From an uncultured archaeon (GTDB lineage Archaea; Asgardarchaeota; Thorarchaeia; Thorarchaeales; Thorarchaeaceae): a stretch of 32,000 bases of DNA. Location of the stretch: assembly GCA_964354495.1 (NCBI GenBank), contig CAYHAA010000008.1, positions 83,054-115,053 on the forward strand, written 5' to 3'. Within the stretch, counting starts at the first letter, position 1. Every line of letters begins with the position of its first letter. The notes under the pieces were generated by a model, which was not told the DNA's origin, searched no databases, and saw only the letters and a list, made by a program, of their open reading frames with translations. Both the position numbers and the translations under genes were made by a program. Below, piece after piece: positions 558 through 4,551 of the stretch.

Positions 558-768
558 ACCGTTCATTGTAAGTTGTACAATCTTGGACACCAGAGCGTTG
601 TACCCCCAAGAAACGGCACTGGGTGGACTCTGCGAGGCCAGGTACGTGTCAGCACAACCTCAGAGTCCTGTCTCCCACGAGTGATATTTAAAGACCTACA
701 AGAATGGTTCACAGAAGTATCTAAGAGATGTCCAACTTTGTCCGAGTTTTCAGCAGCTGTTGCATACC
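558..768 (-). mobile_element. Short non-autonomous insertion element (MITE-like), copy 1, 208 nt plus one GGT repeat; intergenic
   Basis: Ends match 4110-4298 (37/44 and 59/66 nt identical by manual alignment). ACC (GGT on the minus strand) at 558-560 and 766-768. Subterminal inverted repeat at 573-588 / 730-745. Confidence 0.7.
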
Positions 769-991
769 CTACTCTCGATTCGACACGGACTCTCAAATCA
801 CAAGTCGACCCCAGTGTAGTCCTCTGAGCTGACAACACGCAGGTATCAAGTCTGTGCAATACAGAATGAATGATTTAGCCGGTATGTCTTAATAGTATGA
901 CTGTCATTCTGGGATTGACGACCATAAATGTCCGCAAGAACGGATTCGTGCCCCTAGACACAGGTTCAGTGCAATTCGGAGGCTGCTATTC

Positions 992-2552: not shown

Positions 2553-2590
2553 ATCACTAGTGATATCGCTAGTGATATCAATACTGATAT
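2553..2590 (+). promoter_or_regulatory. Palindromic operator cluster overlapping the PadR start (probable autoregulation)
   Basis: Perfect palindrome ATCACTAGTGAT (2553-2564), near-perfect GATATCgCTAGtGATATC (2562-2579), and a further TGATAT at 2585-2590 overlapping the ATG. Confidence 0.55.
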
Positions 2591-3188
2591 GAAAAAGCGA
2601 GATTACCAACACGGGGGTGAAAAACAAGATATGCACGGACCAAGAGATATGTGCGGACCAAGAATGCACCACCACTGGAGCAGAGGAACCTCATTCGTAC
2701 CAAAGGGATACCTTAGGTCTCAGGTTCTGAAGTTGCTCAGCGAGAAGCCTATGTCGGGTGCTGAGATCATGAGTGTGATGGAAGACAAGACCAGCATGAG
2801 ATGGCGCCCGAGCCCAGGCTCTGTCTATCCTCTGCTCTCATGGCTCCTAGACTCGGGTTACACAAGAGAATTGTCTGACTCGGAGGCTGGTGTCCGCCGT
2901 TACGAGTTAACGGAAGAGGGCAGGAAGTTCCTCGAAGAGGAGGAACTACGAAGGGACCAACACAAGGGTTCCCGGTTCTTCGGACCTCAGTTCGAAGACT
3001 GGGAGGGACCAATGCCTGAAGCGGCACGCGAGCTGATCGGCAGCTGGCGGCACATGAGACGAGCTGGCTTTGCGCTTCGCAGGAAGCTCAGGGATAACTA
3101 CTCTGACGCTCTGGCGACGGAAGCCAAGAAAATAGTGGATGACTTCGTGGAGAAGATCTCCCGCCTCTCTGAAATTGAGAGGGCATAG
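2589..3188 (+). CDS. PadR-family winged-HTH transcriptional regulator with a His/Met-rich N-terminus
   Basis: LRSQVLKLLSEKPMSGAEIM...WRPSPGSVYPLLSWL...RRYELTEEGR is the PadR signature. Confidence 0.9.
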   Translation: MKKRDYQHGGEKQDMHGPRDMCGPRMHHHWSRGTSFVPKGYLRSQVLKLLSEKPMSGAEIMSVMEDKTSMRWRPSPGSVYPLLSWLLDSGYTRELSDSEAGVRRYELTEEGRKFLEEEELRRDQHKGSRFFGPQFEDWEGPMPEAARELIGSWRHMRRAGFALRRKLRDNYSDALATEAKKIVDDFVEKISRLSEIERA

Positions 3189-3245: not shown

Positions 3246-3875
3246 TCAGTCTTGGTTCAAGAATGTCATCACCCTTTCAAGTAGATAACAGGGCGTCTTG
3301 CTCAATGTCTTGCTGACATTCCCCTTCGAGGTCTTTGTAGCCTCTGCAATCTCTGATGTTCGTTTCTTTTCCCATATGTAGTAGTAACAGTGCTGCAGCT
3401 GAGAGGCGCTGAGACCTACAAGTGTCGTGTAAAAGAGGAGAGAATTGACCACTGCATTGTTCTCATCACCTGAGGCCTTCTCATCGACCTTGAAGCCAGC
3501 TGACCTATTCATGTACTTCATGCTCTTTGTTTCATTCAAGGCCTCTCTTGCGTTCCAGAAGGCTGGTCCATCGCACTCATCAGCGCTCTCTTTTCGTATT
3601 ATGATCTCTCCTGTTCCCAGTCCAACACGGAACTCCAGCTCTTCCATCAGAAGCCTATGAAAGAGGAACACAATTGGTTGCCAGCTACTGACCAACAACT
3701 CAATGCTATCGCCCTGAGTTATAGCGGGCATGGCGAGGCAGTAGTCCTTGAAACGTTCGTATGTCTGGCTCAACATGCCGCGCATCTTCTCGTCCACTTT
3801 CCTCCGCTCACGAGCATTGACATCTCTTGATGCTACGATGTCAATAATGACTGCAATCAACGGCTCCTCACCCAA
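3246..3875 (-). CDS. SatD-family protein (nucleotide-cyclase-like palm domain plus C-terminal HTH)
   Basis: IIDIVASR, ITQGDSIELL, FRVGLGTGEI, DGPAFWNAREAL, then HTH-like TSEIAEATKTSKGNVSKTL. TTG start overlaps the upstream gene's stop. Confidence 0.8.
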   Translation of the reverse strand: MGEEPLIAVIIDIVASRDVNARERRKVDEKMRGMLSQTYERFKDYCLAMPAITQGDSIELLVSSWQPIVFLFHRLLMEELEFRVGLGTGEIIIRKESADECDGPAFWNAREALNETKSMKYMNRSAGFKVDEKASGDENNAVVNSLLFYTTLVGLSASQLQHCYYYIWEKKRTSEIAEATKTSKGNVSKTLSKTPCYLLERVMTFLNQD

Positions 3876-4551
3876 CTAGCAGAAATCTAAAGCTGCCCCA
3901 TGTCAACGCCAGCGCCATAGTGATACTCATGAACGTGCCGAGAATATACCAGTCCGCGCACGCACGATCAGTGGTTTCCTTATTCGAGTACCGGAAAATT
4001 GCCTTCCCAGCAACAATGACTGAGAGGAAGCTGAGGATTGTTGTGTATGACAGCGCGCTGTCAAAATATGCTATCAGAATTGCCAGGAATATCAGGCTCC
4101 TCTCCATGTACCGTTCATTGTAAGTTGGACAACCTTGGACGCCGGAGCGTTGTCCTCCCAGAAACGGCACTGGGAAAGAACTCCGCGAGGGCAGGCGTGT
4201 GTCGGAACACTCTCCTCTGTCTGTAGTGGGTCGTAGCATATGAACTCGTACAGCGAAATGTCCAAGTTCGTCCAAGTTTTCAGCAACTGCTGCACACCCC
4301 ATGAGATATCCTCCGTATTGGAGGCCGCCGCACTTAGACGCAATGTCTTCTTCATGCCCTCTTGCCAACCTTCCAAAGACTAGATCAATCAGTAGGCCGG
4401 GCAAGAACAGAGCCAAGAGGTACCCAGAGAGAATTGTGAGGAACTCTGTATTCAGTGAGGGTATCGGAAAGACTACAAGTAGAAACAGAGCAGTACAACT
4501 CACTACTGTCATTAGTAGACCAAGAAGTCGCTGAGACGCCTTCAGAAACAC
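3868..4551 (-). CDS. SatD-partner multi-pass membrane protein (DUF3307-associated C-terminal type), carrying a 62-codon in-frame insertion
   Basis: Hydrophobic N-terminus. Removing 4113-4298 restores GLQYGGYLMG-YMERSLIFLAIL...AGKAIFRY...ADWYILGTFMS, matching the family pattern G-x-x-I-G-x-L-E-R...A-K-S-I-F-R...E-Y-I-L-I-G-T-L (from memory). Confidence 0.8.
   Translation of the reverse strand: MFLKASQRLLGLLMTVVSCTALFLLVVFPIPSLNTEFLTILSGYLLALFLPGLLIDLVFGRLARGHEEDIASKCGGLQYGGYLMGCAAVAENLDELGHFAVRVHMLRPTTDRGECSDTRLPSRSSFPVPFLGGQRSGVQGCPTYNERYMERSLIFLAILIAYFDSALSYTTILSFLSVIVAGKAIFRYSNKETTDRACADWYILGTFMSITMALALTWGSFRFLLVG
4110..4298 (-). mobile_element. Short non-autonomous insertion element (MITE-like), copy 2, 186 nt plus one GGT repeat; intragenic and in-frame
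   Basis: ACC at 4110-4112 and 4296-4298. Inverted repeat TTGGACAACCTTGGAC (4125-4140) / GTCCAAGTTCGTCCAA (4260-4275). Homologous to 558-768. Interrupts a conserved protein motif. Confidence 0.75.

Follow-up and report, generated by a model that had tools for sequence, protein, structure and literature searches.

A gene for a small membrane protein in a Thorarchaeota genome (3.3 Mb in 51 contigs) is split, in the middle of a conserved motif, by 186 nucleotides that keep the reading frame and contain no stop codon. A first-pass annotation of this locus proposed that the insert is either mobile DNA, tolerated through frame keeping, or an intervening sequence that is removed from the RNA. The locus thus raises the question of what the insert is, whether it reaches the protein, and why its frame is open. 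Coordinates given without a contig refer to the window, by which we mean the whole analysed stretch of 32,000 nucleotides (C8:83054-115053).

An insert between invariant residues

The host gene, its neighbour and the insert are located as follows.

3868-4551, minus strand: host ORF, encoding a small membrane protein of five helices
4549-4551, minus strand: GTG start of the host ORF, giving 227 aa
4510-4512, minus strand: ATG start of the host ORF, giving 214 aa
3246-3875: SatD-like gene downstream of the host ORF, which overlaps its start by 8 nt
4113-4298, minus strand: net insert, 186 nt, 62 codons, no stop

Database entry P0001 represents the 214-aa form that begins with ATG. A search of 5.8 billion proteins yielded 74 homologues, all told a family restricted to Thorarchaeota/Asgard archaea, whose members are 137-187 aa long, nearly all of 161-163 aa and mostly of 163 aa (n = 74). 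No family for the host protein was found in a Pfam search, and a fold search returned one unnamed relative together with weak matches to DUF3307 (E about 1). Translation of the host gene is coupled to that of the SatD-like gene downstream. The arrangement of the 163-aa membrane protein, the SatD-like protein and a PadR-type regulator (3246-4551 and 2589-3188 in the window) is kept in relatives (L020, L021).

On the minus strand, the interrupted gene reads GGA TAT CTC ATG GGG TGT GCA ... AAT GAA CGG TAC ATG GAG AGG. Once 186 nt are deleted, GGYLMG becomes fused in frame to YMERSLIFL; because GGT stands at both junctions, several cut registers are equivalent, and they extend to 4110-4295. In alignments of 12 and of 66 sequences, the insert is flanked directly by the invariant GGYL(I/M)G and YxERS, its neighbouring residues being the invariant G85 and Y148 (numbering of the window protein). 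The first-pass description of the insert, including the 62 open codons, the motif restored by deletion and the GGT direct repeat, proved correct in every detail. Only the window's own protein carries the insert, and its absence from all 74 homologues excludes that the orthologues share a homologous 62-aa loop.

AlphaFold2 modelled the five-helix core of the host protein well. The insert, residues 86-147, lies almost wholly inside a segment with pLDDT below 50 (residues 83-142) between the helices 35-65 and 145-163, the latter drawing in its last three residues. Of the 50 columns with a conservation of 90% or more, 49 are unchanged in the window protein, and the lone change, I84M, adjoins the insert. 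The codon in question, at 4300-4302, is ATG (Met), while at least 90% of the homologues have Ile (ATA in L020, L021 and G020); the ATG turns the insertion target into TGGGG instead of AGGG. This change may be older than the insertion, as no difference is listed at the codon in the empty-allele contigs from runs X2 and X4 described below.

Empty alleles in close relatives

The empty allele that the first-pass annotation anticipated was found in several places. As DNA, the uninterrupted gene occurs in four congeners (G020, G004, G018 and G019), in two metagenome contigs, and in contigs from the DNA runs X2 and X4, which come from two studies. The metagenome contig L020, encoding an 85%-identical homologue (P0004), reads CTC ATA GGG TAC ATG GAG AGG; its empty-site sequence, CTCATAGGGTACATGGAG, is the one predicted by that annotation except for one base. 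The X2 and X4 contigs join 4109 to 4296 and skip exactly 186 nt (4110-4295). They are ~94-95% identical to the window, and the four differences listed all fall at third codon positions. Because these runs are DNA, the joined form is an empty allele and not spliced RNA.

Since empty alleles of ~94-95% identity exist, the insertion is, on this comparison, lineage-specific and fairly young. The filled allele was seen only in this assembly, and its junctions are bridged by none of the runs X1-X4, each of which holds only a small share of the stretch. Precise excision of the insert would restore CTCATGGGGTACATGG.

A family of short repeats in one genus

The insert belongs to a repeat family. A homologous copy with a stop had been noted earlier at 558-768. 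That copy is real, and it is joined by many more: an iterated nhmmer profile run against the whole genome gave 39 matches, 19 of them full copies of 173-210 nt, and several copies sit at contig ends. Relatives added at least 46 further full copies. The family, whose copies range from 173 to 219 nt, is present in 14 of 27 congeneric genomes, and none was found in 16 genomes outside the genus. The closest paralogous copy, a sister on contig C23, is 92-93% identical to the window copy. Copies and their parts in the window, with LE and RE for the left and right ends, are listed here.

4110-4299, minus strand: whole copy in the host gene, LE to RE, GGGT...AACGGT, aligned with the family
4297-4298 (LE side) and 4111-4112 (RE side), minus strand: GG core dinucleotides
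4259-4276, minus strand: LE subterminal repeats, two (C/A)TTGGACA units 10 nt apart
4124-4141, minus strand: RE subterminal repeats, two TGTCCAA-type units, inverted relative to the LE units
558-769, minus strand: second full copy, intergenic, 208 nt net, stops in all sense frames
777-874, plus strand: degenerate partial copy (RE half), inverted, adjoining the second copy

Read in the orientation of the host gene, the copies begin with (A)GGGT and end with AACGGT, and their flanks are otherwise unrelated. The arrangement A/GGGT...AACGGT/, slashes marking the borders, is read in 15 of the 19 own copies; junctions of the form GG-T...AAC-GG(-T) occur in the 19 own copies and in most of the 46 from relatives. 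Both LE and RE contain a pair of TTGGACA-type units spaced by ~10 nt, and the pair at one end is inverted relative to that at the other. Neither a target-site duplication (TSD) nor a terminal inverted repeat (TIR) was found in the family copies examined. The second copy has the same ends as the one in the host gene and a different middle, and the peptide sequence is not conserved among copies.

Three copies or fragments lie within about 1.7 kb: 558-769 and 777-874 in the window, and G000:C8:82270-82448 just upstream of it. This cluster near the window start may reflect a local insertion hot spot or nested insertions.

Ends and junctions of the IS607 type

A ~3.2-kb element on contig C24 (L001) is bounded by ends like those of the short repeats and contains three ORFs.

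tnpA in L001: 200 aa, MerR-type HTH and Resolvase domain, that is, a serine-recombinase TnpA
1851-2813 of L001, minus (opposite) strand, between tnpA and tnpB: ORF of 320 aa, no Pfam family
tnpB in L001: 504 aa, PF07282

The ends that match the short repeats (LE at 1174-1258, RE at 4300-4365 of L001) flank TnpA and TnpB. The LE subterminal motifs of the window copy recur in the L001 LE at 1190-1216, and its RE subterminal repeats are homologous to the L001 RE at 4336-4366. Every partial match to the ~70 nt on the right falls on the 3' end of a tnpB gene, and six of these ends are additional to that of L001. The tnpA gene is intact on C24 and has an 86%-identical copy on C22. The inner ~60-100 nt of the short element are not recognisably derived from the full-length element on C24. 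Homologues of the 320-aa ORF adjoin tnpA on C22 (78% identity) and on C7 (48%), and this ORF may be a passenger gene of IS607-type elements.

In an IS607 element studied experimentally, a GG core dinucleotide is strictly required at each of LE, RE and target, the favoured target 5'-TGGG-3' serves at the same time as the TnpB TAM, inverted repeats are lacking, and transposition passes through a circular double-stranded DNA intermediate with scarless excision (bioRxiv 10.1101/2023.11.20.567912). The insertion site in the host gene falls between TGGGG and T, so that the filled site can be written ATGG-GG-T...AAC-GG-TACATGG; most other copies have A-G-GG-T. With IS607 transposons the insert shares its type of ends, a GG core at both junctions with (A/T)GGG upstream, short subterminal repeats, the lack of both TSD and TIR, a scarless empty site, and an RE overlapping the 3' end of tnpB, the location of the guide RNA scaffold. 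Unlike them, it is gene-less, too short for a transposase at the family's 173-219 nt, and multicopy, with dozens of copies in one Thorarchaeota genus.

Because its junctions and ends match L001 and the published behaviour of IS607, the 186-nt insert is, by these features, a miniature non-autonomous element (MITE) of the IS607 family that was inserted at the DNA level. The L001 match also excludes the possibility that its ends are unrelated to any TnpA/TnpB element. Together with the empty allele, this supports the first of the two explanations originally offered, mobile DNA tolerated through frame keeping, and gives the mobile DNA a name. TnpA encoded by a full-length copy would act in trans to move the MITE, via a circular double-stranded intermediate recombining at GG, with the LE subterminal repeats as presumed TnpA binding sites; a MITE copy could in principle excise scarlessly. 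We found no earlier description of a MITE family of this Thorarchaeota genus in the literature searched. The family defined here is marked by clear ends, by (A/T)GGG-GG as a clear target motif and by secondary structure in the RE half.

A structured right-end half

4110-4220, minus strand: RE half, three covarying helices, candidate remnant of an omegaRNA scaffold

Whether 12, 19 or 58 copies are aligned, the consensus fold is better on the sense strand (-34/-31 kcal/mol) than on the antisense strand (-19 kcal/mol). Modest covariation was seen in three helices, for instance GC/UA/CG at 30/12/12 for one pair among 58 copies. At another pair, 44 of the 58 copies have G.U, a pairing possible on the sense strand alone. 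Folding of the single sequence is not unusual (z of -1.3 sense and -0.95 antisense). No Rfam match to the element was found in the window at the gathering score, and L001 and L002 gave only chance-level matches at E<=10.

The last ~70 nt of the RE half are homologous to tnpB 3' ends and RE in this genome. Both its position at the right end and its location on the tnpB strand fit an omegaRNA, with homology limited to these ~70 nt. We infer that the RE half is an omegaRNA-like scaffold, the guide of which would be the 3' flank from 4109 downwards. In IS605/IS607 elements, cutting of the empty allele by TnpB favours retention (bioRxiv 10.1101/2023.11.20.567912). By analogy, TnpB loaded with RNA of the RE half could target the empty allele, through the TAM-like TGGG and the 3' flank, and so help to retain the copy in the host gene.

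Frame preservation across the family

The open frame of the window copy might be thought to reflect a property of all copies. Most family copies have two to five stops per sense frame, and the window copy (4110-4299) is open in two of its three sense frames. In the remaining 18 full copies of this genome, about 6% of the combinations of copy, frame and strand are a multiple of three in length and stop-free. The first-pass annotation had put the chance of such an outcome at ~2% by assuming random sequence; the family itself gives about 6%. Lengths are multiples of three in 11 of the 19 own copies, a count dominated by one 177-nt subfamily, and in 39 copies from relatives the lengths modulo 3 are distributed 15/12/12, with no bias.

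Only two of the 19 own copies are truly intragenic, namely the window copy and a copy in a methyltransferase gene.

G000:C4:57847-58027 (L010 1548-1724), gene on the minus strand: methyltransferase copy, 177 nt, sense, in-frame stops

This copy splits a SAM-dependent methyltransferase exactly in motif I, between VAAGTGR and VSLALA. Because neither half of the gene shows other damage and the copy hardly differs from one at C1:289798, the insertion looks recent. Three further copies that appeared intragenic (C8:16898, C7:21114 and C16:58191) were rejected, as the ORFs spanning them are upstream extensions; the true genes (PAP2, Tsr3-like and Holliday-junction-resolvase-related) start after the insertion.

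For relatives, intragenic insertions were called by joining the flanks and searching the product against this genome. Four were validated, all with in-frame stops or a frame shift. Thus, the window copy is the only open one among six validated intragenic copies. In L030 (G011:C349), a 207-nt copy at ~1389-1599, LE to RE, interrupts a 391-aa ORF in sense orientation and with stops; the orthologue of that ORF in this genome (C25:11343-12482) is 78% identical and uninterrupted, making a reverse pair of filled and empty sites. Frame preservation as a family-wide trait is therefore rejected, on the lengths of the copies in relatives and on the stops or frame shifts in five of the six intragenic copies. 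One open case among six is unremarkable and compatible with pure chance, at about 6% per event.

Translated, spliced or broken

Could the insert nevertheless be removed before the protein is made? If the archaeal splicing endonuclease (EndA) acted on a relaxed bulge-helix-bulge (BHB) at the junctions, the MITE would be excised from the mRNA, the mature product would be a normal 165-aa protein, and a DNA transposon would act as a mobile archaeal mRNA intron. The genome encodes two EndA paralogues.

G000:C7:64948-65196 (L022) and G000:C6:24745-25002 (L023): tRNA-splicing endonuclease genes (PF01974), in frames of 197 and 212 aa

These paralogues may conceivably form a heteromeric enzyme of broad specificity, and heteromeric splicing endonucleases are linked to relaxed intron motifs in other archaea. 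The canonical hBHBh' motif has two 3-nt bulges on opposite strands at the splice sites, with a 4-bp helix between them. With cuts between 4298 and 4299 and between 4112 and 4113, an outer helix UCAU/AUGG (4/4), a 5' bulge GG/G and a central helix GUGU/GUAC (4/4) can be drawn, and by a post hoc estimate an equal h+H score is reached at 0.9% of 15,945 genomic GGGT sites given the element. This coincidence of pairing and the two EndA genes are the sole hints of such splicing. However, the h' helix is missing (2/4), and where a 3-nt bulge should hold the 3' cut site there is an open strand of 13 nt; a strict BHB intron (hBHBh') is rejected on these grounds. Forcing this fold costs 12.4 kcal/mol relative to the minimum free energy, its pair probabilities are about 0, the element ends by themselves supply two of the four central pairs, and intergenic copies score similarly. 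Furthermore, the five other intragenic copies carry stops and show no sign of special handling, and the private loss of a TGA described below would be of no consequence for an insert that is spliced out; such an insert needs no open frame, yet the window copy is uniquely open. With no Rfam intron family and a BHB that is incomplete and energetically disfavoured, the RNA-level alternative of the first-pass annotation is unsupported, and we regard endonuclease splicing as very improbable. The probability that the insert removes itself, as a group I or II intron of the IStron kind or as an intein at the protein level, is practically negligible. An intein would accord with Cys as the first residue of the insert. 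Inteins are, however, marked by a Hint domain, an N-terminal Cys/Ser, a C-terminal His-Asn and a downstream Cys/Ser/Thr, and the insert ends in NER followed by Tyr, matches no Hint/intein family in Pfam and has only 62 aa, so that an intein is rejected; its peptide sequence, moreover, varies among copies. As to self-splicing, the known group I or II intron cores are larger than 186 nt, and the Rfam searches given above, of the window and of L001/L002, returned no intron match, even though IStrons, in which IS605/IS607 elements are fused to a group I intron, do exist in clostridia (bioRxiv 10.1101/2023.11.20.567912).

The reason why this copy is open can be traced to one codon and to its length.

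4213-4215, minus strand: private codon, GGA in the host frame where the family has TGA

At the T of the conserved TGAGG motif, 54 of 58 copies have T, three have C (CGA), and G is found only in the window copy. The T-to-G change removes the only in-frame stop and breaks a base pair of a conserved helix. The sister copy on C23 has TGA and 187 nt, the window copy GGA and 186 nt; thus, the frame of the window copy is open because the family TGA was lost privately and the length is a multiple of three. Since an insert that is spliced out would not need an open frame, the insert appears to be translated, and the private loss of TGA, as read from these alignments, favours a translated and tolerated loop. 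A survivorship filter could explain the pattern, in that under purifying selection only a variant leaving the frame open could persist in the host gene. The modelled product would be a full-length protein in which a disordered loop of 62 residues separates helices 2 and 3; it would be at least partly functional, and the persistence of the allele would follow from this function. The same insertion could instead have created a recent null or strongly impaired allele that is open by chance. The 62 extra residues do stand inside the most conserved loop, between invariant residues; the five other intragenic copies, one here and four in relatives, simply break their genes; about 6% of family insertions are open by chance anyway; and an empty allele ~95% identical implies a young event, after which the gene need not yet have decayed. 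The host protein may indeed be impaired by an insertion that splits its motif. A null allele is nonetheless unlikely, given that openness needs two features which the sister copy lacks (the loss of TGA, and 186 rather than 187 nt), that only one of the 50 conserved columns is altered, that the differences listed from the empty alleles are confined to third codon positions, and that the host gene is translationally coupled to the SatD-like gene. It is extremely improbable that a repeat copy was wrongly joined into the gene during assembly of this metagenome-assembled genome. The family does disturb assembly, as the copies at contig ends attest, and runs X1-X4 do not bridge the filled junctions; yet the junctions are exactly those of IS607 integration (GG cores, TGGG as target, and an element that is complete between LE and RE), the element ends share only 3-4 nt with the target, too little for a mis-join in the assembly graph, and the window copy has private substitutions absent from all other copies. 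We therefore consider it probable that the insert is an IS607-family MITE in the loop-coding part of a membrane-protein gene, where it is translated and tolerated.

Comparison with other known systems

Archaeal BHB introns are known from protein genes, for example cbf5 of Crenarchaeota. The MITE resembles them as an intervening sequence in an archaeal ORF with partial h-B-H pairing at its junctions. In contrast to it, such introns are short, are not repeated transposon copies and need both bulges, whereas the MITE lacks the second bulge and h'. With IStrons the window copy has in common the ends of a TnpB-family transposon inside a gene, the sense orientation and the idea of mitigated harm to the host gene. 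Unlike them, it contains no detectable group I intron, for which it is too short, and any mitigation would come through frame preservation and not through splicing.

Fusions that stay in frame are known from Rickettsia palindromic elements (RPEs) and from other intragenic MITEs (review PMC10969869). Like an RPE, the window copy is a repeat of ~150-200 nt in a coding gene whose frame is unbroken, and it adds a peptide segment where the fold may tolerate it. The intragenic copies of RPEs, however, are mostly in frame and have a conserved peptide frame, whereas the MITE family has one open copy among six, stops in most frames and no bias modulo 3. Systematic in-frame insertion, which characterises RPEs, is thus absent from the MITE family. 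Judged by sequence, the suspected intron in an Asgard gene is a known kind of transposon event, not a new kind of intron.

In conclusion, a false intron lead is removed, and the host gene can be reannotated as encoding a conserved 163-aa membrane protein with a MITE-derived loop of 62 aa. The definition of the family is useful for repeat masking and for the reading of broken genes in Thorarchaeota metagenome-assembled genomes. It also provides natural material, from the archaea most closely related to eukaryotes, for the study of TnpB guide RNAs on non-autonomous elements. Finally, the single open copy represents a small natural experiment in the conversion of transposon sequence into protein sequence.
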